From contig JAUYKW010000008.1 in the NCBI GenBank assembly GCA_030698395.1, forward strand, positions 1,662 through 65,661: a stretch of 64,000 nucleotides of DNA, given 5' to 3'. Source of the DNA: a bacterium (GTDB taxonomy: Bacteria; Patescibacteriota; Patescibacteriia; UBA9570). Position numbers and translations under genes: made by a program. Positions 20,224 to 44,591 of the stretch are shown in pieces (within the stretch, counting starts at the first letter, position 1; each line of letters begins with the position of its first letter). Under the pieces are notes generated by a model, which was given only the letters and a program-made list of their open reading frames with translations, searched no databases and had not been told where the DNA came from.

Positions 20224-20261
20224 TTTGACAAAAAAACAATACGAATTTATACTCTTTCTAT

Positions 20262-20342
20262 ATGATACATTTAAATAAAAATTTCTGGTTTTACTTTAGC
20301 TATATACAGCTCCGGAAGGTGTGTGCATTTGACGTGTCATAA
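20262..20342 (+). CDS. Candidate 26-aa attenuator leader peptide rich in aromatic codons: MIHLNKNFWFYFSYIQLRKVCAFDVS.
   Basis: This is a direct translation. The run FWFYFSY (3 Phe, 1 Trp, 2 Tyr) lies immediately before and overlapping segment 1 of the attenuator. No strong SD was seen. Confidence 0.45.
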   Translation: MIHLNKNFWFYFSYIQLRKVCAFDVS

Positions 20343-20396
20343 AAAAAGACATTAGATAGAAATAGCAACCTTCCGGAGCAACCGGAAGGTTTTTTT
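20309..20396 (+). promoter_or_regulatory. Transcription attenuator. Segment 1 (gctccggaagg, 20309-20319) can pair with segment 2 (ccttccggagc, 20370-20380) as an antiterminator. The alternative is an intrinsic terminator (aaccttccgg-agcaa-ccggaaggtt plus a T-run, 20367-20396). It lies upstream of the DAHP synthase/trp/aro operon.
   Basis: The 11-nt and 10-nt complementarities were read directly from the sequence. The terminator stem is followed by TTTTTTT. Confidence 0.6.
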
Positions 20397-20432
20397 ATTA
20401 AAAACCTTATCAATAAATAATTCAAGAAAAAT

Positions 20433-32931: not shown

Positions 32932-34266
32932 ATGGCAGATCCATTTAAGCCAGGGAGTGTAGCAAGAAAAATAGATTCTGATGTTCCACCAGCTGAAGAA
33001 GATGACTTAGGTATTTCTGTTGAGCATGCTGCTGTTTTAGATCGAGCAGCTCGTTATGGTGATCTTGAGAATGATGTTGAAGAGGGCTTGAGTGAAGCAG
33101 AGAAAAAAAATAAGGTGGCAGAGCTGGCAACTACTTTTGCTAGTGAGGATCATAGATTTGATAGAGAATTGATGAATGCGATAGATATAAAGCTTGGTGC
33201 TAAACATATGGCCATGGAGCAAAGTCTATCTGGTTTCGTTGAATATATAAATGAACCTGATTTGGAATCTTGTAATAAATTATTGGAGATTTTTGGTGAA
33301 ACTAGAATGGAATTTGAGGAACGATTTGGATATTTAGAGATGTTCAAGAGTAGAATGCAACGATCAGAGTTTCCAGAAGTTCGAGCGATGGCGTTAATAA
33401 TTGAAAAATCATACGCAGCGATGCTGCAGTACGCAGATTTATTATCGGCAGCTGAGAATTTAATGGGTAAGATAAAGAACCAGGTCGAGATGACTGGATT
33501 ACCAGAAGATATTGCATTACAGCAATTAAAAAAATTGAGTAATAAAATAGCTACATTGTATCGAAATGAGCTCCACAAAGTCGGTAGAAATGTTCGTCAC
33601 GCGTTAGCGTACGAAGGATATCGTGCATATATTGATAGTACTGATGATAAAGAAAATTTAAGAGAAGGCGATGTTGATGAGGATTATCTTTATGAATCTG
33701 GGATAAAGTTGGATGATGTGAAATTAAATGAAGGAGATATAAAAACACTCCAAGCATTGGATTTTAGAATGAAAGGTAGAGTTGGAGCTATTACGACTGA
33801 GTTGTTTAATTCCACCAGCGAAGAGAGATTAGAAAAAAATAGACAATCACTAGAAACGATACAGAAAGTTAAAATGTACTTTCAGGATCGTATGCAAATT
33901 ATATCTGATATATTACCAACACTAAACGAGGCTGATTCTATCTTTTTGCAAGAATTGCACATGCCAATGAGAGAGTTCATTATAGAAATGGAAAATCTAT
34001 TTAGCGTTTTGGATCGAGCTATTGTTGAATTGAATAAGTTAGTAGAAAGTAATTTATCAATTGAAGATAGATCTCTAATACAAATTAAATTGGATGAAAT
34101 GCAGAATGAAGTTGAGAGAATTTATCAACAAAAACTACAACCATTTGCAAATGTGGTCGCTACAAATTTAGCTTATATGAAGTACCGTAAAGGCGTGACT
34201 GAAACTCAAAGAGACGAGACGCCTGAATTGGTAGGTGAAGATTATCAATTAAATGTTGCTAAGTAA
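32932..34266 (+). CDS. Hypothetical acidic, probably helical protein (444 aa) embedded in the aromatic operon.
   Basis: The ORF is intact in the host low-GC composition. No motifs were recognised. Confidence 0.4.
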   Translation: MADPFKPGSVARKIDSDVPPAEEDDLGISVEHAAVLDRAARYGDLENDVEEGLSEAEKKNKVAELATTFASEDHRFDRELMNAIDIKLGAKHMAMEQSLSGFVEYINEPDLESCNKLLEIFGETRMEFEERFGYLEMFKSRMQRSEFPEVRAMALIIEKSYAAMLQYADLLSAAENLMGKIKNQVEMTGLPEDIALQQLKKLSNKIATLYRNELHKVGRNVRHALAYEGYRAYIDSTDDKENLREGDVDEDYLYESGIKLDDVKLNEGDIKTLQALDFRMKGRVGAITTELFNSTSEERLEKNRQSLETIQKVKMYFQDRMQIISDILPTLNEADSIFLQELHMPMREFIIEMENLFSVLDRAIVELNKLVESNLSIEDRSLIQIKLDEMQNEVERIYQQKLQPFANVVATNLAYMKYRKGVTETQRDETPELVGEDYQLNVAK

Positions 34267-35871: not shown

Positions 35872-35900
35872 TTGACACTTTATAAAGTATAAATTATAAT
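35872..35900 (+). promoter_or_regulatory. Perfect consensus sigma70 promoter: TTGACA, 17 nt, TATAAT.
   Basis: The sequence is ttgaca-ctttataaagtataaat-tataat. Confidence 0.55.
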
Positions 35901-35906
35901 GTTCTT

Positions 35907-36095
35907 AAGTTTATGAATTTTATACACAGCAACAACTTATCTAAGCTTAAATGGACAGTGGTCTCTTCTATTAAGACACTGGTACGTATTTATTTACATA
36001 TAGCGCGGGCAAGGATAAGCAATGCAATTACATAAGTTGCATAATAAACAGAAAAGCTGCAACCTTAGCCCGCGAAAAAAACGCGGGATTTTTAT
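35907..36095 (+). ncRNA. Candidate ~190-nt small RNA or leader transcript, running from the consensus promoter to an intrinsic terminator. It contains a long imperfect stem (36003-36014 with 36063-36074) that competes with the terminator stem, and an optional 30-codon sORF.
   Basis: The promoter and terminator were read from the sequence, with no gene in between. It could not be matched to SRP RNA, 6S RNA, tmRNA or RNase P consensus motifs. Confidence 0.3.
36068..36095 (+). terminator. Intrinsic terminator: stem cccgcg / cgcggg, a 7-A loop, and a T-run.
   Basis: The sequence is gcccgcg-aaaaaaa-cgcggg-atttttat. Confidence 0.55.
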
Positions 36096-36230
36096 ATATT
36101 ATTTCTAGACTACTCGACTGGTATCCTCCGCACTAGTTGAGTCGCCTGGAAAGTAATTTCCAGATTATCGTTCTTTGTAAAGTATTTATCCCTATTTTTA
36201 GAAGTTATTCTGTTAATGGTGATAAAACAA

Positions 36231-36251
36231 TTTTAGAGGCAACGTGAAATT
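36231..36251 (+). repeat. Conserved leader box TTTTAGAGGCAACGTGAAATT, copy 1. Copy 2 is at 37283-37303, and a degenerate copy 3 is at about 37815-37835.
   Basis: Two copies are identical over 21 nt. Each lies upstream of a GC-rich ORF in the island. Confidence 0.6.
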
Positions 36252-36275
36252 AAATCTGGTTTAAAACGTAGCAGA

Positions 36276-36342
36276 GCGAGGAAAATGGTTTTTGTAGATA
36301 CGCGATTAATCGCGTATCTACGGATAAAAATATTTTCCTCGC
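36276..36342 (+). repeat. 67-nt inverted repeat. The outer arms are gcgaggaaaat / attttcctcgc. They enclose a perfect 28-bp palindrome, GTAGATACGCGATTAATCGCGTATCTAC (36294-36321).
   Basis: Read directly from the sequence. It lies about 80 nt upstream of the first GC-rich ORF. Confidence 0.7.
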
Positions 36343-36422
36343 TCCGGCTACCTAGTAGACCGGATTTCTCGGGTCATAGACCCATCCTCATACTCCTGCT
36401 GAAAAGCATGTGGAGATTCTCG

Positions 36423-37064
36423 ATGTCTGTTCGCCCTTCCAGTCCCTGCTCCAAGCTCGTCGTGCTCGCCGATGATGCTCCTGCCCTCTCCGTTCTCTGC
36501 GAGTTCATCGAGCCCAAGGCTATCGGTGGTCGCTGCATGTCCTTCGAAAGCACTCAGGTGCTGTTCTTCAACCGGAACAATCTGCAGGGCCTCGTGGCTC
36601 GGGTCGTGGTTCGGCGCACTGCTCGACCGCTCGGCGACAACATCGTATCTGTGCGCACGGTCGACGTGATCGTGGTGAACAGCGAAGATGATCTTCGACA
36701 CTACTTGCAGGACTCCCAGGTGTTGCATCTGCGCAGCACCGATCAGCGCCAGCCTGCCATGTACACCTTCACCCACAGCAAGATGTTCCCCAAGCCGCCC
36801 AGTGGTAGTGCTCACATCTGTCAGTTCGAGACTGGTCACCTGCAGAGTCACCTCCGGAACCTGGTGTCGGTTCTCTACTCGGGATGGTTCTCCCGCAAAC
36901 CGCAGGATGCCACGGTCTGCACGCCGAACAGCGCCATCGCCCAGATGTCTGGCTACATCGGACGTTCCACCCTGGCCTTCGAGGAAGGAGGTTATGGCGG
37001 AAGCGTGCAGTTCGGTCAGGACGACGCTTACGACGCGATCCGCGAGGACGGTTCTCGCTTGTAG
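36423..37064 (+). CDS. GC-rich (~60% GC) hypothetical protein of 213 aa, with strong G/C bias at codon third positions.
   Basis: The + frame has about 85% G/C at third positions with very few A, while all other frames look like wrong-frame GC-rich noise (R/P/S-rich). An SD (GGAGA) lies 8 nt upstream of the ATG at 36423. No known motifs were recognised. Confidence 0.5.
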   Translation: MSVRPSSPCSKLVVLADDAPALSVLCEFIEPKAIGGRCMSFESTQVLFFNRNNLQGLVARVVVRRTARPLGDNIVSVRTVDVIVVNSEDDLRHYLQDSQVLHLRSTDQRQPAMYTFTHSKMFPKPPSGSAHICQFETGHLQSHLRNLVSVLYSGWFSRKPQDATVCTPNSAIAQMSGYIGRSTLAFEEGGYGGSVQFGQDDAYDAIREDGSRL

Positions 37065-37080
37065 AAGAGCGAATAGAGGG

Positions 37081-37197
37081 CACGATTCGTCGTGGACAGT
37101 GATGGTAGACCGCATGACACCTCCTGTCGGGCTTCTTCTTTTCACGTTGCCCACCTCTCCTTTGTTTATCTATTAGCCCTTGCTAAATGGTAGAAAA
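37081..37197 (+). repeat. Conserved ~115-nt 3' trailer element, copy 1. H1 is CACGA-UUCG-UCGUG. H2 is gacag...ctgtc. H3 is gggc...gccc. Then follows ACCTCTCCTTTG and an AATGGTAGAAAA box.
   Basis: It is about 85% identical to 37633-37745, and a degenerate third copy is at about 38166-38240. Compensatory changes keep the stems intact: H2 is gacag/ctgtc in copy 1 and gacaa/ttgtc in copy 2; H3 is gggc/gccc in copies 1 and 2 and aggc/gcct in copy 3. Confidence 0.65.
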
Positions 37198-37320
37198 TAA
37201 GGTAAATAATGTAGTGGTAATAATTAGTCGTTCCTTTTATTTGTACTGGATGAATAACACTATTCTTTCAGTATTAACAGTATTTTAGAGGCAACGTGAA
37301 ATTCTAGCTGGTAATGTCCT

Positions 37321-37362
37321 AGGGTGAGGATATTGGTTTTATAACCAATGCCCCCACCCTGG
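37321..37362 (+). repeat. Conserved 5' leader stem-loop, copy 2: AGGGTG-AGGATATTGGTTTT-hairpin-ATGCCCCC-CACCCT. Copy 3 is at 37866-37919: TGTTGGGGT-AAGGATATGGGTTTTT-...-ATGCCCCC-ACCCCAACA.
   Basis: The closing stem differs in sequence but keeps its pairing in the two copies. A related AGGAAAATGGTTTTT motif sits in the 67-nt IR upstream of ORF1. Confidence 0.5.
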
Positions 37363-37620
37363 CTTACATTCGTAAAGCTGGAAATTGGGTTTCGACCCAC
37401 CCCTCAACCCCTCGAAAGGATCCTCCAGGTGGCTAAGAAAAAGCGGAAGAAGGAAGTTTGTAGAAGTGGTAGCAAGAAGATTCGTGTTGTGCAAATCAGC
37501 GATGCGGAACTTCGCAGGAGTACTATATCTGAGCTTTGTCGGAAGTATCATGGACGCATGGTCGTTGTTAACGGTCAGCGGTTCCTGATGACGAACGAAG
37601 AGCACAGCGAACACACCTGA
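37348..37620 (+). CDS. Small basic protein (63-90 aa depending on start), moderately GC-rich, a paralog of the 37933-38136 ORF.
   Basis: The ATG at 37348 lies inside the conserved noncoding ATGCCCCCACCC motif. A GTG at 37429 preceded by AAAGGA is a plausible alternative start. It shares ELCRKYHGRMVVVNG with EFCRRYNGQQVTIGS in the next ORF. Confidence 0.4.
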   Translation: MPPPWLTFVKLEIGFRPTPQPLERILQVAKKKRKKEVCRSGSKKIRVVQISDAELRRSTISELCRKYHGRMVVVNGQRFLMTNEEHSEHT

Positions 37621-37632
37621 GCAACCTGGGGT

Positions 37633-37745
37633 CACGATTCGTCGTGGACAATGATGATGGACTATTCGTCGTCACTTGTCGGGCTTCAACTCTTCACGTT
37701 GCCCACCTCTCCCTTGACTATTATCATTAAAAATGGTAGACAAAG
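37633..37745 (+). repeat. 3' trailer element, copy 2.
   Basis: See copy 1. The identical H1 hairpin cacgattcgtcgtg is present. Confidence 0.65.
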
Positions 37746-37932
37746 GATTGGTGAAAGTCATTCGTTCTTTATAACTAATGTGATGACTCACAATAATATT
37801 GTGATAGTTACTATTTTTTTCAGGCAATATGAATAGATCGTGGGCTAAACGTCCAAAAGGACTATGTTGGGGTAAGGATATGGGTTTTTCGATAAAAATC
37901 TATGCCCCCACCCCAACAAGTAAGGAGTGCTC

Positions 37933-38136
37933 ATGAATGCACCAGATGCTGAGCCCGGCGGTGTACGTGGCAGCGAGAGAGAGGTAGATCGAGACATGCA
38001 GAGATTTTCAGCGCGGGAGTTCTGCCGGCGTTACAATGGTCAGCAGGTCACTATCGGCTCCATGCGGATTCACATTCGCTACGAGCCCACTCCCTCGTTG
38101 CCGCGCGATCGGCCGGAGGCGCAGCTGTCCATCTAG
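37933..38136 (+). CDS. Small protein (67 aa) paralogous to the 37348-37620 ORF.
   Basis: A strong SD, AAGGAG, lies 5 nt upstream of the ATG at 37933. About 68% of third positions are G/C. The upstream ATGCCCCCACCCC motif is out of frame and terminated, so it is noncoding here. Confidence 0.45.
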   Translation: MNAPDAEPGGVRGSEREVDRDMQRFSAREFCRRYNGQQVTIGSMRIHIRYEPTPSLPRDRPEAQLSI

Positions 38137-38165
38137 GGCAGCGGAGGTTGTGGCTGGTGGTGCAG

Positions 38166-38240
38166 TCATAGACAAGATGGTAGGCTACGCCCCATCCTGT
38201 TAGGCTTACCGTTTTCATATTGCCTACCTCTCTTTTGATT
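38166..38240 (+). repeat. 3' trailer element, degenerate copy 3.
   Basis: It aligns to copies 1 and 2 over GATGGTAG...TCCTGT..GGCTT...TTTTCA..TTGCC.ACCTCTC.TTTG, with stem covariation. Confidence 0.5.
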
Positions 38241-38374
38241 AGCTAGTAAGCTAGTTGTTTAGAAGAGAGGTAAGTTTCAACAGGATCTTTCCCAAGTACG
38301 TTTAGTTGCACTAGCGACTTTGCGTCAACAGTTTTTTTGACAACGTCAGTTATGCACCTACCTAGCAGGAGGAG

Positions 38375-38467
38375 ATGGTAGGGAAGTTGCAGCAAGAGGT
38401 GCTGCAGGTGGGATTTTTCGTCTCCATCCCATTGGACAACCCGCTGACGTTGTCCCTTTCCTTATAA
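38375..38467 (+). CDS. Possible 30-codon sORF (MVGKLQQEVLQVGFFVSIPLDNPLTLSLSL) bracketed by an 11-nt inverted repeat (gacaacgtcag at 38338-38348, ctgacgttgtc at 38444-38454).
   Basis: An AGGAGG lies immediately upstream of the ATG. It is short and unsupported otherwise. Confidence 0.15.
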   Translation: MVGKLQQEVLQVGFFVSIPLDNPLTLSLSL

Positions 38468-38573
38468 ATATCATTTGTTGGTACTTATAAGGATTTGGAT
38501 AATTGTGAATAAGTTAAATAATATAAGTTGACTTATTAAAAAAATAATATATTCTTTATTTTAAGAAGTATTT

Positions 38574-38663
38574 ATGAATATTCTTTTTGCCCAAATAAAT
38601 CTTATTAGCATTATTAGCCTGCTTATTAGCCATGGTTCTTTGCGTTATGAACAAACTTAAGTA
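38574..38663 (+). CDS. Possible 29-aa hydrophobic peptide (MNILFAQINLISIISLLISHGSCVMNKLK), followed by a terminator.
   Basis: It is a short ORF in host-like AT-rich composition. An intrinsic terminator lies 25 nt downstream. No clear SD was seen. Confidence 0.2.
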
Positions 38664-38684
38664 AAAAAGTAATTCAAACGTAAA

Positions 38685-38713
38685 GAACCCTGTCAAATAT
38701 CGCAGGGTTTTTT
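38685..38713 (+). terminator. Intrinsic terminator: aaccctg-tcaaatatcg-cagggtt-ttttttt.
   Basis: Read from the sequence. Confidence 0.55.
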
Positions 38714-38811
38714 TATTGCCTCATTAATTTCTCCTTTAACAGGGGATGAGAACCGTACGGCGGTAGGAGGAGTCTATCGTTCTTCCTGTACGCTTCGGCA
38801 ACGAGGATACA

Positions 38812-39036
38812 ATGTACCGGCGCGGTACCTGGGAGTTTTATCAGTTCAACGCCGTGTTTCACGCTGAGCTGGTCAGGTGTTCGAATGGCATCGTGGCGCT
38901 GATGTGGCGCAACGAGGTGCACAAGACCGGTGCCAACGAAGTGACCATTGCGTACCGACGGTTCGAGCGTCAGCAGTGGAGCTTCTGGGCTCATTCGGCC
39001 ACAGGAGGCACCTGTGACACGTCCGCGGTCTACTAG
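38812..39036 (+). CDS. GC-rich hypothetical protein (74 aa) with high G/C at third positions.
   Basis: About 78% of third positions are G/C. A GGAGG lies about 45 nt upstream and the proximal SD is weak (GAGGAT). It is flanked by an inverted repeat: gcgagacggcgg (39083-39094) and ccgtcgtctcg (39137-39147). Confidence 0.35.
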   Translation: MYRRGTWEFYQFNAVFHAELVRCSNGIVALMWRNEVHKTGANEVTIAYRRFERQQWSFWAHSATGGTCDTSAVY

Positions 39037-39231
39037 CAGCTCCGAGAGCGTTGCTACGCCTGACGCAAATACGGAATCTCACGCGAGACGGCGGCATGGG
39101 TTGACTAGATGTATTTATGTACGTCTTGCTATCACCAGCCGTCGTCTCGACCGTTCATCTTATTTATTGTTTAATTTGCTCTAAGAAATAAAATCATTTA
39201 TACTCATTAAAGTTAAGTTAAAGGATATATC

Positions 39232-41829
39232 ATGCAAAATTCTTTCGAACAATTACAAAATTACCTTGCTAAAAATCCAGATTTAGTTGCAGAAACTACG
39301 CGGCGGAAGCGAACATTAGTTTACATCGCTGGAATGTCTTTGGATCAAGAGGAGCTTGCTAAGGTACGAGGTATTGAGTTTTACGAAGAACGTTTATTAT
39401 ACGTTGTTGGCTTATTACGAGATCCAAACACTAAGATTGTTTTTGTATCCTCAAAGCAAATTGATCCAGTTATTATTGATTATTATTTTGATTTATTTAG
39501 TAGATCTCAGAAAGAGCGGATTAGCATGGAGAAAAGATGGCATCATTTTTATATTGGTAATAGTAGAATTCATAAAACTTTAACTCAAAAAGTTTTAACA
39601 TCAAAACGGTTGGTTATTCAAATTAATCAGCAAATTGATAATACTAAGCAAGCTGTATTACGGTGTTTTAATTCGTCTGAAGATGAAAAAGCCCTAGCAG
39701 TTAAATTAAATATTCCTTTATATGCTCCAGATCCTAAATTTTTACATTATGGATCGAAATCCGGAGCTCGTCAGGTGTTCAAGCAAGCAGGTTTAAAACC
39801 ACCATATGGAGTAGAAAATATTACCTCAATGTTGGAGTTGATTAACTCAATTAGAAAAATTAAACAGCATGAGAAGGGGGTTGAACAAGTTGTTGTAAAA
39901 TTTGATTACAGCTTTTCTGGAGTAGGTAATGCTAATTTGACGGTAAGCAAATTTCCACGTACAAATGTAGCTGCCGAGAAGTACATTAAAACTCATCTTA
40001 AACCAAATGAATCAGATGTTACTGCGATTCAGTATTTAAAAAAGTTATTTGATATTGGTGGAATTGTTGAAACGTGGTTACAAGGAATACGAATCTTTTC
40101 ACCAAGTGTTCAGTTAGCAATAGATCCAGATAAGAGTGTCCGGATTATTTCTAGTCATGAGCAGTTGCTTGATGAAGAAACAAAACAAGTTTTTTTAGGA
40201 GCTAGATTTCCGGCTCGTAAATCGATGAGACAACCTTTGTTACTACAGGCAGAAAAGGTGGGAAAAGAATTAGCTGATGCAGGAGTGATTGGATTTTTTG
40301 GAATAGATTTTATTGCTGTGAAAGAGAAAACAAAATATGTTGCGTATCCTATTGAAATAAATTTGCGCAAAGGTGGAGCAACACATCCTTTTCAGATAGC
40401 TAGAATGTTAACGCAAGGTAGCTATAAAAAAGATGGAGCTATGCGTGATGATTCACGACAGAGGATTGCATATTATTCTTTTGATAACATTAAATCTACA
40501 GATTACGTTGGTTTGAAGCCTGAGGAAATTATTAAAATAGTTAAGCAAGCAGGGCTAGAATTTGATCATGAAAATAATGGTGGAGTTTCTTTACACTTGT
40601 TAGGAAGCTTAAAAAAATATGGAAAATTTGGTACAGTTTGTATTGCACGTTCACCACGAGCAGCTGAGCAATTATTTATCATTTTAACTAAGGTTGTTGA
40701 TGCGTATGTGGCACGAAAATCAGAAATTGAAATTGTTACACCTCAAGTAGTTTCTGTAAATCAAAAGAGATTGGTTGATACTTTTATAAAATTAGTTAAG
40801 ATTGCTAGTCCTTCAGGAGAAGAAGCAAAAATTAGATTATTGCTTAGAGAAGAATTAGTGAGATTGGGCGTAAAAACAAGAGTTGATAAGTCAGGAAATT
40901 TAATCGGTAAAAAACCAGGTGTAGGTACCGTACCGTTTTTGTTATCAGCACATATGGATACTGTAAAACCATGTGAAAATGTTAATCCCGTAATTAGGGG
41001 AAATACTATCATGACAGATGGCACTACTATATTGGGCGCAGACAACAAGGCTGGAATTGTATATATTTTGGAGCTACTGCGATTATTGCATGAATTTGAT
41101 ATTAAACATCGGCCATTAGAAATAGTAATGTCTGTCTGTGAAGAACAGTTTTCGGGTGGAGCAGACGAACTTGATGTTTCTAAATTAAAATCTCCAGTTG
41201 GTCTGGTTGTGGATGGTGCTGATTTAGGGGAGGTTGATTATATTTCACCTTATATAGCAACCATTAATGTATCTGTTATTGGTAAAGCTGCTCATTCTGG
41301 AGTAGAGCCAGAAAATGGTGTAAGTGCGATTCAGATAGCATCTAACGCTATTGCAAATATGCCATTAGGAAGACTTGATCATGATACGACTGCAAATATT
41401 GGCTTAATTACTGGTGGGACTAATAGAAATGCAATTCCAGATCGAGTAGAATTAGAAGGAGAAGTACGAAGTTTAACAAAACGATATTTAGAAGAACAGT
41501 TAGAGCGAATGCATAAGGCTTTAGAAGATGCTGCTGAGTTATATGGCGGGTTACTTGATATTTCTAGTAAGATAGCTGTTCAAGGTTACAAATTTTCCAA
41601 AAATGATCCTGATTTAAAGAAGATTATGCAGATTATGAAAGAAGTAGACATTAAACCAGATTTAAGGAAAGCTGGGGGTGGTTCAGATGCGAATGTATTT
41701 GTTGCTAGAGGCATAAAAACTATTGATGTTGGGACAGGTGTACAGAAGCCACATACTGTTGAAGAGAGTATAAAAATAGACGACATGACGAAGATGGTAG
41801 AATTTTTATTAAAGATTGTCCAAGTTTAG
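39232..41829 (+). CDS. Two-domain protein: an N-terminal ATP-grasp-type ligase domain fused to a C-terminal M20-family metallopeptidase domain (peptidase T/ArgE/DapE-like).
   Basis: The ATP-grasp signatures are VVVKFDYSFSGVGN (compare VxxKP..GSxGxGV) and GIDFIAV...YPIEINLRKGG (compare EVNxxPG). The M20 signatures are SAHMDTV, GADNKAG and IGKAAHSG. Confidence 0.55.
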   Translation: MQNSFEQLQNYLAKNPDLVAETTRRKRTLVYIAGMSLDQEELAKVRGIEFYEERLLYVVGLLRDPNTKIVFVSSKQIDPVIIDYYFDLFSRSQKERISMEKRWHHFYIGNSRIHKTLTQKVLTSKRLVIQINQQIDNTKQAVLRCFNSSEDEKALAVKLNIPLYAPDPKFLHYGSKSGARQVFKQAGLKPPYGVENITSMLELINSIRKIKQHEKGVEQVVVKFDYSFSGVGNANLTVSKFPRTNVAAEKYIKTHLKPNESDVTAIQYLKKLFDIGGIVETWLQGIRIFSPSVQLAIDPDKSVRIISSHEQLLDEETKQVFLGARFPARKSMRQPLLLQAEKVGKELADAGVIGFFGIDFIAVKEKTKYVAYPIEINLRKGGATHPFQIARMLTQGSYKKDGAMRDDSRQRIAYYSFDNIKSTDYVGLKPEEIIKIVKQAGLEFDHENNGGVSLHLLGSLKKYGKFGTVCIARSPRAAEQLFIILTKVVDAYVARKSEIEIVTPQVVSVNQKRLVDTFIKLVKIASPSGEEAKIRLLLREELVRLGVKTRVDKSGNLIGKKPGVGTVPFLLSAHMDTVKPCENVNPVIRGNTIMTDGTTILGADNKAGIVYILELLRLLHEFDIKHRPLEIVMSVCEEQFSGGADELDVSKLKSPVGLVVDGADLGEVDYISPYIATINVSVIGKAAHSGVEPENGVSAIQIASNAIANMPLGRLDHDTTANIGLITGGTNRNAIPDRVELEGEVRSLTKRYLEEQLERMHKALEDAAELYGGLLDISSKIAVQGYKFSKNDPDLKKIMQIMKEVDIKPDLRKAGGGSDANVFVARGIKTIDVGTGVQKPHTVEESIKIDDMTKMVEFLLKIVQV

Positions 41830-42214
41830 CGAAAAAAGTGTCAATTTATTTGGTGTATAAATTGTGACTATTTTGGATTGAAAAGAACCTCTTTTTTTGC
41901 TATACTTGTAATACCCTGTTCCGTACCTTAAACAACTTTCGACAAACGATTCTCATCAGGGAGTTTTACATTCATGATAGTCGGTGAACTCAAAAAAGGT
42001 ATTGATAATAAATGTTGATACAATTGAGTATCTAAGAATATCAGATGCGAACACCCACTTAAAATCAGAGGGGAGTTGAAAAAGTGATGAAACAGGGCAA
42101 AAAAATATCCTATAAATATGGGGTATTTTTTTATTTATTAAAGTTTTTTATGGCTAGCGTGAATAACGACTTTTCGTTATACTAAGCACGTAAAAATATT
42201 AATATTCAATAATC

Positions 42215-43390
42215 ATGACAGATAAAATACCGGCATTAACCCTAGATCTCGAACAAGACGGTTGGCAAACATCCAAAGGCTTTATTAAACGCGATGTTGA
42301 TATGCCGGTTTTGGATGAAGCTGTTAATAGCAGTGATGCTTTATCAGTGATAGTTAAAATTCAATACGCTGGAATGTGTGGATCGGATAGAGGAATATGG
42401 AACCGAACGGCGTTTTCAGATATGTTTAAGGAATCTCTTGTAGCTGAAACAAAAAGTCTCAGAATTTTGGGTCATGAATTTGTTGGTGAGGTAGTATCTG
42501 CAGGCTCCCAAGTAGAAAATTTATATGGTATTAAAGTAGGTGAACCGGTATCTGGAGATTCGCATGTAACATGTGGTCGGTGTTTTCAGTGTCGCGTTGG
42601 TGAGCAGGAAGTATGTCAGGATCAGGCAATTTTAGGAATCAGCATTGATGGAATATTTGCTCATTATGTAAAAATTCCTGCAAAGAATTTATGGGTAGTA
42701 GATAATGATAGAGTAAGGCCAGAAGTTTGTGCTTTATACGATCCATTTGGAAATGCAGTGCACTCATTATCTAAAACAGATGTGCGAGGAGCTCGAGTTG
42801 CGGTGTTTGGTTGTGGACAAATTGGAATGTTTTCAATACTTTTGGCTCGTCAATTTGGAGCAGCTAAGGTTATTGGCATAGATGTAAATCAAGCGAATTT
42901 AGATATAGCTAAAGAACTAGGTGCTCATGAAACTATTTTGATTGAAAAATCAGACAAGAAAAATGATTACGATGTGGATCGGAATGTTGTTGATGAAATA
43001 ATGGAATTAACGTATGGCAAGGGAGTTGATGTGAGCTTGGAAATGGCAGGATTCAATTCTTCTGTGAATAATGCAATTGCGTCTACTAGATTTGGTGGTG
43101 ATGTAATTTTATTTGGCATAAAAGATGGCGAATTCATGATTCCGGATTTTTCTAAAATGATTGTAAAAGGAATTACCTTACATAATGTGATTGGCCGACA
43201 GATATTTCAAACCTGGCAAACTGCACAACGCGTGTTATCGGATTCTACTAATGGAGTACAAGAAAAGATATGGAAAACTATTCTTAAGGGTGGTAACGAT
43301 ACTATTATCAAGTTATCTGAGTTCTCTCCAGAAGACATGGAGAAGAAGATGGCGGCTCATCCAAAATTAATTTTTGATATTCAAAATTAA
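42215..43390 (+). CDS. tdh: Zn-dependent medium-chain dehydrogenase, probably L-threonine 3-dehydrogenase.
   Basis: It has the zinc-ADH fold with a Rossmann motif (VAVFGCGQIG) and a GHE catalytic zinc motif. It lies immediately upstream of kbl. Confidence 0.7.
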   Translation: MTDKIPALTLDLEQDGWQTSKGFIKRDVDMPVLDEAVNSSDALSVIVKIQYAGMCGSDRGIWNRTAFSDMFKESLVAETKSLRILGHEFVGEVVSAGSQVENLYGIKVGEPVSGDSHVTCGRCFQCRVGEQEVCQDQAILGISIDGIFAHYVKIPAKNLWVVDNDRVRPEVCALYDPFGNAVHSLSKTDVRGARVAVFGCGQIGMFSILLARQFGAAKVIGIDVNQANLDIAKELGAHETILIEKSDKKNDYDVDRNVVDEIMELTYGKGVDVSLEMAGFNSSVNNAIASTRFGGDVILFGIKDGEFMIPDFSKMIVKGITLHNVIGRQIFQTWQTAQRVLSDSTNGVQEKIWKTILKGGNDTIIKLSEFSPEDMEKKMAAHPKLIFDIQN

Positions 43391-43403
43391 AATTTAAAAT
43401 AAT

Positions 43404-44591
43404 ATGTACGATTCTTTAAAAAAAGTAGTAAGCTCTGGATTAGCAGAAATTAATGAAGCTGGTTTATATAAAGGTCAGCGTTTGATTAGCGGTCATCAGG
43501 GAACAATAGTAGAAGTGGAAGGTAAGGAGTTGATAAATTTTTGTGCAAATAATTATCTTGGTTTGTCTGGTAAGCAAGAGTTAGTGGATGTGGCAAAAGA
43601 AAATTTAGATAAGTATGGCTATGGTTTATCATCTGTGCGATTCATTTGTGGTACTCAGACAGTTCATAAAGAATTAGAAGCAAAGATTGCGGAATTTTTA
43701 CATAAAGAAGATGCTATTACATTCACATCTTGTTGGGATGCTAATGAGGCTGTATTTGCCAGTTTGTTAACAGCAGATGATGCGGTTCTTACGGATGCAC
43801 TTAATCATGCTAGCTTGATAGATGGCATTAGATTGTGTAAAGCAGAACGACGTATTTTTAAGCACATGGACATGTCAGATTTGGAGCAACAACTACAAGA
43901 TACGCAAGATAAAAGATTGCGCTGTATCGTAACTGACGGAGTATTTAGTATGGATGGAGATGTAGCACCATTAAAAGAAATTTGTGATTTAGCAGACAAA
44001 TATGATGCTTATGTAGTTGTTGATGATTCACATGCAACAGGATTCATGGGTGAAACTGGTAGGGGAGCAGTAGAGCAGGAAGGTGTACTGGATCGTGTCG
44101 ATATTATTACTACAACTTTTGGTAAAGCATTAGGTGGCGCAAATGGCGGTTGCATTGCAGGACCAAAGGAAGTAATTGAATTGTTGCATCAAAAAGCAAG
44201 AACAACATTATTTACAAACTCTCTAGCACCAGTGATTGCTGGAACTACAATATTTGTATTGGACTATATCGATCAACATCCAGAACTACGTGAGCAATTG
44301 TGGACTAACACAAATTATTTTAGAGAAAAGATGATAGCAGCAGGATTTACGGTGCCGGAATCAGTTCATCCGATTGTTCCAGTAATGATTGGAGATGGTA
44401 AGGCAGCGGGCGATATGGCAGCAGATATGTTAGAAGAAGGTATCTATGTAATTGGTTTCAGCTATCCAGTTGTACCAATGGATACAGCTAGAATTCGTGT
44501 TCAGATATCTGCCGAGCACACAATTGAACAAATTGACGTTTTGGTTACAGCTTTCACTAAACTAGGTAAAAAATACGGTATTATTGATTAG
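43404..44591 (+). CDS. kbl: 2-amino-3-ketobutyrate CoA ligase (glycine C-acetyltransferase), PLP-dependent.
   Basis: An alpha-oxoamine synthase family PLP-lysine region (TFGKALGG) is present. It is paired with tdh. Confidence 0.8.
   Translation: MYDSLKKVVSSGLAEINEAGLYKGQRLISGHQGTIVEVEGKELINFCANNYLGLSGKQELVDVAKENLDKYGYGLSSVRFICGTQTVHKELEAKIAEFLHKEDAITFTSCWDANEAVFASLLTADDAVLTDALNHASLIDGIRLCKAERRIFKHMDMSDLEQQLQDTQDKRLRCIVTDGVFSMDGDVAPLKEICDLADKYDAYVVVDDSHATGFMGETGRGAVEQEGVLDRVDIITTTFGKALGGANGGCIAGPKEVIELLHQKARTTLFTNSLAPVIAGTTIFVLDYIDQHPELREQLWTNTNYFREKMIAAGFTVPESVHPIVPVMIGDGKAAGDMAADMLEEGIYVIGFSYPVVPMDTARIRVQISAEHTIEQIDVLVTAFTKLGKKYGIID

Follow-up and report, generated by a model that had tools for sequence, protein, structure and literature searches.

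A probable leaderless leader-peptide attenuator upstream of a GC-rich small-gene array in Patescibacteria, and a family of similar units in its relatives

The DNA between the chorismate mutase gene and a GC-rich array of small genes on the patescibacterial contig JAUYKW010000008.1 (positions 1,662 to 65,661, a stretch of 64,000 nucleotides (nt) that is called the window here) carries a compact unit, W-1. W-1 is probably a ribosome-mediated transcription attenuator, in which translation of a leader peptide would gate read-through into the genes downstream; from the sequence, the probability of this reading can be put at roughly three in four. The evidence consists of the sequence elements of the unit, their conservation and covariation in relatives, the geometry of the open reading frame (ORF) with respect to the antiterminator, and a bias in peptide composition that differs between classes of unit. 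The family is a new one of a well-known type of switch: the mechanism is known, and what is new is the family and its targets. A search of the literature found no paper on attenuators in Patescibacteria or on the box sequences that mark the downstream genes.

W-1 was first noticed as a transcription unit with a perfect consensus promoter, an intrinsic terminator and an alternative partner for the 5' half of the terminator stem, and all three elements stand (Table 1). The promoter is the sole 12/12 match in the window. The alternative pairing, of CGCGGGCAAGG (36004-36014) with CCTTAGCCCGCG (36063-36074), is part of an antiterminator duplex of -23.7 kcal/mol, more stable than that of any of 500 dinucleotide shuffles of the upstream sequence (z = -3.6, p <= 0.002). 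The original prediction also described a 30-codon small ORF without a Shine-Dalgarno (SD) sequence. The SD is indeed missing, as expected for a leaderless start with the ATG 12 nt past the -10 hexamer, but the ORF has 40 codons, because the TAG at 36001-36003 that had been taken as its end is out of frame. The chance of this frame remaining open is 0.043. The 5' strand of the antiterminator (region 2) falls within the last 10 leader codons, and the stop codon lies 12 nt past its end.

The terminated and antiterminated states of W-1 are nearly isoenergetic, at -39.0 and -37.4 kcal/mol, a gap of 1.6 kcal/mol. In folding predictions, the terminator forms when region 2 is masked, and nascent RNA extending to region 3 goes directly into the antiterminator. 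The fold of the whole transcript is only modestly more stable than those of shuffles (z = -1.86); the signal sits in the specific competing helices, not in global stability. A local hairpin is predicted inside the ORF at 35955-35982, and it does not pair with region 2.

This arrangement suggests a simple course of events. Transcription would start about 6 nt before the AUG, giving an effectively leaderless mRNA onto which a ribosome would load once the 5' end emerges. During smooth translation of the ORF, the ribosome would cover region 2 and then adjoin it; with region 2 masked, region 3 would be left to form the CCCGCG/CGCGGG terminator with region 4, releasing an RNA of about 188 nt. An earlier stall, caused by a shortage of charged tRNA or by any slowing of elongation, would leave region 2 free to pair with region 3, and the polymerase would continue past a boxA-like site and into three GC-rich small genes, each enclosed by a long-range helix. 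The boxA-like site may render the polymerase resistant to termination, and the long-range helices may act in processing or stabilisation. A second unit, W-2, with a peptide rich in Ile and Leu, would gate the last small gene and the gene for a ligase-peptidase fusion. No promoter-like site was found on the + strand between 35900 and 37699, which includes the sequence from the W-1 terminator to the first small-gene module.

Units of the same design recur in related genomes. A curated set of 18 units was assembled from Patescibacteria near Kerfeldbacteria, drawing on genomes in GTDB, on contigs from metagenomes and on contigs with a gene homologous to that of the ligase-peptidase. The position and architecture of the unit recur in every related locus that was fetched; nucleotide similarity between the W-1 locus and its relatives is not detectable. 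Promoter scores are 8-12 of 12 in 17 of the 18 units (unit L135-2 scores 5), the distance from the end of the -10 hexamer to the ATG is 9-13 nt in 16 of them, and an SD is absent from all. From the promoter-proximal ATG the frame is open for 15-45 codons, up to the antiterminator, in all 18, with a joint chance of about 1e-15; the remaining two frames usually contain 2-5 stops. In 18/18 units the stop codon is at most 4 nt upstream and at most 38 nt downstream of the point where region 2 starts. Each unit shows the competition between an antiterminator and a GC-rich terminator, and the antiterminator duplex is better than those of dinucleotide shuffles (p <= 0.05) in 17 units. The paired sequences themselves vary from unit to unit (CAAGG/CCTT, GGTTCTTTGCGTT/AACGTAAAGAACC, GGGTTAAAACGG/CCGTTTTAACCC and GGGTTTTTTATTG/CAATAAAAAACCC). 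A cross-unit specificity control, with the shared GC core removed, was positive overall, five of the 18 units ranking first against about one expected.

An unbiased scan of 386 kb of loci from the Candidate Phyla Radiation (CPR) looked for a composite pattern: a promoter whose end lies 8-14 nt upstream of an ATG that lacks an SD, an ORF of 12 or more codons, a terminator placed 12-80 nt past the stop codon, and an antiterminator overlapping the end of the ORF. The coding strand gave 23 matches and the opposite strand 0. The scan independently found a unit in the window directly upstream of the gene for 3-deoxy-D-arabino-heptulosonate 7-phosphate (DAHP) synthase and the whole trp/aro supraoperon, which serves as an internal positive control. 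Its ATG is 8 nt past the -10 hexamer, and its antiterminator strand CAGCUCCGGAAGGUG pairs with the 5' half of the terminator, AACCUUCCG(G). Units whose peptides contain SYFYFYF, FGYFFFYNF, NWFYFYNF or NWYYFYNF lie directly upstream of aroA in loci of Magasanikbacteria, Peregrinibacteria and Peribacteria (L009, L010, L013, L014). These aromatic leaders are the textbook signature of amino-acid attenuation, on exactly the chassis of W-1.

Peptide composition is biased in a different way in each class of unit. The aro leaders contain 32% F/W/Y against a background of 8% (p = 7e-12), and the same percentages are found for the short-type first units (32% versus 8%, p = 1e-5). Ligase-adjacent units in five genomes, including W-2, which lies directly upstream of the fourth small-gene module and the ligase-peptidase gene, have 23% Ile against 7% (p = 4e-5). 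In W-2 the distance from the -10 hexamer to the ATG is 18 nt, longer than in the other units. The long-type first units, which are the orthologues of W-1, have 15% Thr against 6% (p = 5e-8). Since these orthologues are rich in Thr and W-1 itself has no clear codon run, W-1 may sense the supply of Thr or of beta-branched amino acids weakly, or the speed of elongation generally. The Thr-rich long-type leaders co-occur with tdh and kbl downstream; in the short-type clade, both the Thr-rich leaders and these two genes are missing.

Several points weigh against an attenuator at W-1. The peptide has no run of codons for a single amino acid; there are two Thr among its 25 sensing codons, and nothing is significantly enriched. 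No clear region 1 (anti-antiterminator) was found in W-1, so an untranslated leader would read through, unlike in the classical trp design, and the genes that W-1 would regulate do not form a biosynthetic operon. In the cross-unit control, the W-1 antiterminator extension ranks only 10 of 18 for its own partner, for which it is no more specific than for the partners of other units; the control is not positive for W-1, whose helix is mostly core. The attenuator model partly steered which ORFs were chosen for the 18 curated units, although the blind composite scan recovers most of these units. To our knowledge, neither leaderless translation nor transcription-translation coupling has been demonstrated in Patescibacteria. 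All aspects of expression, including translation of the leader ORF, the direction of the switch and the signal, are deduced from the DNA.

Of the roles that the original prediction offered for W-1, the one that gains support is that of an attenuator-like cis-regulatory leader for the island downstream. It is unlikely that its primary role is that of a stand-alone trans-acting small RNA (sRNA) or dual-function RNA, in which the terminated transcript pairs with targets elsewhere. The strong promoter and the terminator would yield an abundant short RNA, and attenuator-derived RNAs can act in trans, as does rnTrpL of Sinorhizobium (PMC6614838), so that such a role would be compatible with attenuation. 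However, relatives share no sequence conservation beyond the competing stems and the ORF frame, and the unit invariably points in the same direction as the element that directly follows it, an element that is of the same kind each time. Rfam gives no match, and 6S RNA, signal recognition particle RNA and transfer-messenger RNA (tmRNA), which had been put forward for checking, are excluded by Rfam and by ARAGORN, which finds no tRNA or tmRNA in the window.

The conserved open frame could instead mark an independent small-protein gene that has a promoter and a terminator to itself and encodes, for instance, a membrane peptide or a type I toxin; the upstream stem would then be no more than a part of some stable 3' structure. 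Some of the peptides are hydrophobic, such as INLISIISLLIS of W-2. The peptides are nevertheless weakly conserved, with a mean column identity of 29% and lengths of 15-45 amino acids (aa), and the changes between orthologues are mostly non-synonymous, a pattern more in keeping with leader peptides than with small proteins that have a function of their own. Conservation is seen in how the stop codon is placed with respect to the antiterminator, a toxin would leave the F/W/Y-run units before aromatic operons unexplained, and Pfam, PHROG and PADLOC give no match across the locus. A small-protein gene is thus quite improbable.

Mutually exclusive helices are common to all classes of attenuator, and the same terminator/antiterminator pair could be worked independently of translation, by a riboswitch or by a leader of the T-box, TRAP or PyrR type. 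A distinct, conserved riboswitch-like element with its own terminator/antiterminator pair, GGCTATTTTAG...CTGAAATAGCCCC...GGGGCTATTTTG, is present in the relatives L142 (4460-4560) and L144 (3520-3625), where it closely precedes a small ORF or the ligase gene; Rfam does not match it, and the window holds nothing that corresponds to it. For W-1, such a translation-independent switch is very unlikely, and the metabolite riboswitch that had been suggested finds no support. Neither the window nor 145 kb of relatives had a gathering-level Rfam match, and with the threshold relaxed to E <= 10 the best scores on the locus were 16.6 bits for Trp_leader (RF00513; cut-off 41) and 22.1 bits for Arrc14 (cut-off 99). 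There is no conserved non-coding stretch of aptamer size, because the sequence from the start to the antiterminator is a predicted translated ORF. Nothing else lies upstream of region 2, and this ORF is rich in AT, has little structure and is unconserved in sequence. The short-type units leave only about 55 nt, too small for an aptamer, and such a switch would account neither for the conserved open frame nor for the leaderless ATG.

A chance promoter in the 3' untranslated region (UTR) of the chorismate mutase gene, with the hairpin merely the terminator of the aro operon, is highly improbable: the hairpin is the first terminator past the last aro gene and may also end aro transcripts, but the promoter is unique at 12/12 in 64 kb, W-2 and the aro-leader unit share the design in the same window, and the whole unit recurs in relatives with no aro operon upstream. 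In those relatives (L139-L144) the site is preceded by gatCA, a response regulator gene, ndk and an unknown gene, and one or two units still lie upstream of the same ligase-peptidase gene. The unit is therefore tied to what lies downstream and not to chorismate mutase, and the proposed connection with aromatic metabolites is not supported.

Table 1. Coordinates in the window of the attenuator units, the GC-rich modules and the ligase-peptidase gene.
Feature	Position	Strand	Details
W-1 promoter	35872-35900	+	TTGACA 35872-35877, 17 nt, TATAAT 35895-35900; predicted start about 35907
W-1 leaderless leader ORF (predicted)	35913-36035	+	40 codons 35913-36032, TAA 36033-36035; peptide MNFIHSNNLSKLKWTVVSSIKTLVRIYLHIARARISNAIT
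W-1 region 2 (antiterminator 5' strand)	36003-36021	+	Within last 10 leader codons
W-1 region 3 (antiterminator 3' strand)	36056-36074	+	Last 6 nt (36069-36074) are 5' half of terminator stem
W-1 intrinsic terminator	36069-36095	+	CCCGCG-A7-CGCGGG stem 36069-36087, then AUUUUU; tail AUUUUUAU
W-2, second attenuator unit (predicted)	38528-38714	+	TTGACT-16-TATTCT; ATG 38574; 28-codon Ile/Leu-rich ORF MNILFAQINLISIISLLISHGSLRYEQT
W-2 hairpins	Region 2 38630-38647; region 3 38675-38693; terminator 38688-38707	+	U7 after terminator; antiterminator duplex -20.0 kcal/mol, z = -8.2
trp/aro leader unit	20225-20398	+	TTGACA-17-TATACT (11/12); ATG 20262; peptide MIHLNKNFWFYFSYIQLRKVCAFDVS with F/W/Y run
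trp/aro leader unit hairpins	Region 2 20307-20321; terminator 20367-20391	+	U7 after terminator; internal positive control
boxA-like motif GTTCTTTGTAA	36170-36180	+	Between W-1 terminator and module 1; second copy 37764-37774
Module 1	36235-37158	+	5' box AGAGGCAACGTGAAA 36235-36249; 3' box TTTCACGTTGCCCACCTCT 37140-37158; gene 36423-37064, 213 aa
Module 2	37287-37711	+	5' box 37287-37301; 3' box 37693-37711; possible ORF 37348-37620
Module 3	37821-38232	+	5' box CAGGCAATATGAA; 3' box TTCATATTGCCTACCTCTC; SD AAGGAG; 67-aa ORF 37933-38136
Module 4	38715-39231	+	GC-rich 74-aa ORF 38812-39036, GAGG SD; directly upstream of ligase-peptidase gene
Ligase-peptidase gene	39232-41829	+	865 aa; BesA/PGM1-like ATP-grasp amino-acid/peptide ligase fused to PepT-like M20 peptidase

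Two features of the units in relatives stand beside this account. Of the 18 units, 12 have a DnaA-box-like motif, TGTGGA(A/T)AA, at a distance of 12-25 nt before the -35 hexamer, and this may be a transcription-factor binding site; the units of the window lack it and have near-consensus promoters instead. Its positions are 8966 in L002, 8936 in L006, 7624 in L007, 3403 in L056, 97 in L136, 1845 in L137, 4702 in L138, 4476 in L139, 3340 and 4216 in L142, and 2404 and 2861 in L144. The second feature is region 2 of the short-type units, which is GGCGGTAG in three L142/L144 units (L142-1, L144-1 and L144-2) and AGCGGTAG in L139-1. GGCGGTAG coincides exactly with the core of the RfaH ops element; this was considered and set aside, the coincidence probably following from the ACCGCC/GGCGGT terminator stem.

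It is just downstream of W-1 that the biology becomes more unusual. The region 36100-39200 has a GC content of 46-51%, against about 35% for the genome, and the island as a whole (36100-39231) holds four or five modules, whose architecture is kept in relatives and whose gene content is not. The plan of a module is a boxA-like motif, a 5' box such as AGAGGCAACGTGAAA, and a complementary 3' box such as TTTCACGTTGCCCACCTCT some 270-900 nt on, with an ORFan gene enclosed. Over the island the boxes can be summarised as GGCAACGTGAA for the 5' box and TTCACGTTGCC-CACCTCTC for the 3' box. The boxA-like pattern GYTCTTTRYAA has two matches in the window against 0.6 expected, both of them 55-65 nt upstream of a 5' box, and it is found at the same place in relatives. 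A possible mini-module at 38339-38455 has GACAACGTCAG paired with CTGACGTTGTCC around a 30-codon ORF (38375-38467) with the SD AGGAGGAG; alternatively, there may be a mere local hairpin at 38434-38455.

The helix formed by the boxes is supported by covariation. Over 11 modules from eight genomes, 88% of cells are paired, compared with 33-47% when the partner is slid; compensatory changes occur in nine of 14 pairs, G-U pairs are present, and 0 of 500 shuffles reach the observed score. The boxes of module 3 show a CG to TA compensatory change. Whole-module folding against shuffles gives z = -6.5, -3.4, -9.1 and -2.8 for modules 1 to 4, and the excess of structure is in the UTRs (z of -3 to -9), with the interiors of the coding sequences (CDSs) at z of about 0. 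The interiors also have SDs and the coding signature GC1 > GC2 < GC3 in the GC contents of the three codon positions. That the modules are structured non-coding RNAs was therefore rejected for their interiors, given the coding signature, the SDs, the lack of CDS structure and the existence of protein-level homologues. GC3 in the modules is 0.44-0.91 irrespective of the GC3 of the host, which is 0.15-0.80, a pattern that points either to movement of the units between genomes or to selection for their composition.

The module proteins match nothing in Pfam, PHROGs, NCBIfam or PADLOC, and a homologue search with the 67-aa protein of module 3 found none. The 213-aa protein of module 1, whose gene is annotated in a metagenome-assembled genome at NCBI (locus tag Q8P90_01675), has only four remote homologues, two of them in the same kind of module, and one of these two behind a long-type attenuator. 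Genes homologous to those of the modules are also found elsewhere, at different loci and in different genomes (L145, L169). AlphaFold gave a useless model of the 213-aa protein from the single sequence (predicted local distance difference test (pLDDT) score of 33), and with five sequences a model of pLDDT 63 overall with a confident core. As to the idea that the small proteins are precursors of ribosomally synthesised and post-translationally modified peptides for the PGM1-like ligase, they have no common leader or core, and their composition differs from that of the host.

Two familiar origins for such an island were considered and rejected. For a phage or plasmid origin, there was no blastn match in either collection, and the 3' box pattern occurs in IMG/VR at the level of chance and never with a partner 5' box. 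For integron cassettes with attC sites, which were rejected on inspection, the inverted repeats flank the ORFs rather than follow them, the R''/R' consensus (RYYYAAC / GTTRRRY) is unmatched, and no integrase, recombinase or reverse transcriptase was found in the 64 kb. The modules could be mobile units. A tentative and rather doubtful proposal is that they are exchangeable tandem cassettes at a fixed site upstream of the ligase-peptidase gene, a new system specific to Patescibacteria that is switched on by ribosome stalling, with the attenuator as its front end. It is speculation that they make up a stress regulon whose codon dialect would keep it translatable when the A/U-ending codons of the host are starved.

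In the ligase-peptidase, the PepT-like part scores above the cut-off of TIGR01883. The gene is followed by a tdh-like gene and by kbl, the latter also above its cut-off, the three genes occupying 39232-44591. The 385-nt intergenic region upstream of the tdh-like gene (41860-42215) contains a promoter-like TTGAAA-17-TATACT that has an extended TG; a hairpin near 42100-42135 looks like a weak terminator. Beyond kbl are the str and S10 ribosomal operons with secY, the str operon being about 7 kb downstream of the flagged locus. The 5' part of the window has type IV pilus genes, ligA, gatCA, a response regulator gene and ndk, followed by the 15-kb trp/aro supraoperon (DAHP synthase, trpEGDCFBA, aroB, aroA-K, aroD-E, aroC, an unknown 444-aa gene, pheA, tyrA and chorismate mutase) and then the flagged locus. 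The 444-aa gene (32932-34266), between aroC and pheA, has no match in Pfam, NCBIfam or PADLOC, and at its place relatives show shorter unknown ORFs or a gap. The window is AT-rich, at about 35% GC, and is a core stretch of chromosome with all genes on the + strand. ORFs of at least 150 aa are all on this strand except in the GC-rich island, where ORFs overlap on both strands, and the GC skew is about +0.25 across the whole window. The nearest genomes are Patescibacteria annotated as Kerfeldbacteria or 'Patescibacteria group', with 55-65% amino-acid identity, and a public sequencing run holds a contig identical to this one.

Gene regulation in the Patescibacteria/CPR, which are uncultured, have reduced genomes and take amino acids from hosts, is almost unknown. 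If W-1 and its relatives work as proposed, they would provide the first concrete and testable picture of how these organisms sense amino acids or the status of translation, with one unit before the trp/aro supraoperon and two before the small-gene array and the ligase-peptidase gene. Working transcription-translation coupling and leaderless initiation in Patescibacteria would be implied. The GC-rich, helix-enclosed ORFan modules would also be flagged as regulated genes rather than as assembly noise.

The closest comparison is with the classical leader-peptide attenuators of Proteobacteria and Actinobacteria (trpL, pheL, thrL, ilvL, leuL and hisL). Both have a short promoter-proximal ORF, in both the 5' half of the terminator can pair upstream instead, with the position of the ribosome selecting the helix (as proposed here for W-1), and both show enrichment of the amino acid that is, or here would be, sensed, in the present family as F/W/Y in the aro leaders, Ile in the ligase-proximal units and Thr in the long-type first units. 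The MKHLSCEFYFFAFW of L144 resembles the pheL peptide of Escherichia coli. In contrast, the classical leaders are preceded by an SD and those of the present family are leaderless or nearly so, and the family has no evident region 1 or pause hairpin that pairs with region 2. Further differences are that region 2 of the long-type units is inside the ORF rather than after it, that W-1 has no codon run, and that the targets are ORFan small genes and a ligase-peptidase rather than a biosynthetic operon. In mycobacteria, leaderless short ORFs act as cysteine-responsive attenuators. These are alike in that translation of a leaderless mini-ORF controls the downstream genes of the operon, and they differ in their poly-Cys runs and in being actinobacterial.

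The arrangement downstream of W-1 recalls the leaders of rrn operons in E. coli and Bacillus subtilis, where a boxA antitermination site is followed by a long-range stem processed by RNase III. The modules likewise have a boxA-like sequence, G(C/U)UCUUU(A/G)(C/U)AA, and then a covarying helix whose partner lies 270-900 nt away around a GC-rich segment; the enclosed segments, however, are variable protein-coding genes with SDs, not rRNA. The leader-peptide attenuators of ermC, vmlR and bmrCD, which sense antibiotics or translation stress, offer another parallel, since in these a stall frees the antiterminator with no need for a run of a single amino acid, which would fit W-1. They differ in controlling resistance genes and in having specific arrest motifs, and nothing links the W-1 locus to antibiotics. 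The leader of mef/mel(msrD) is reported to be an attenuator of this kind (PMC4335068). Finally, in Sinorhizobium meliloti, the terminated attenuator RNA rnTrpL and the leader peptide peTrpL can also act in trans (PMC6614838, PMC7298713), which matches the dual-function idea in the original prediction.

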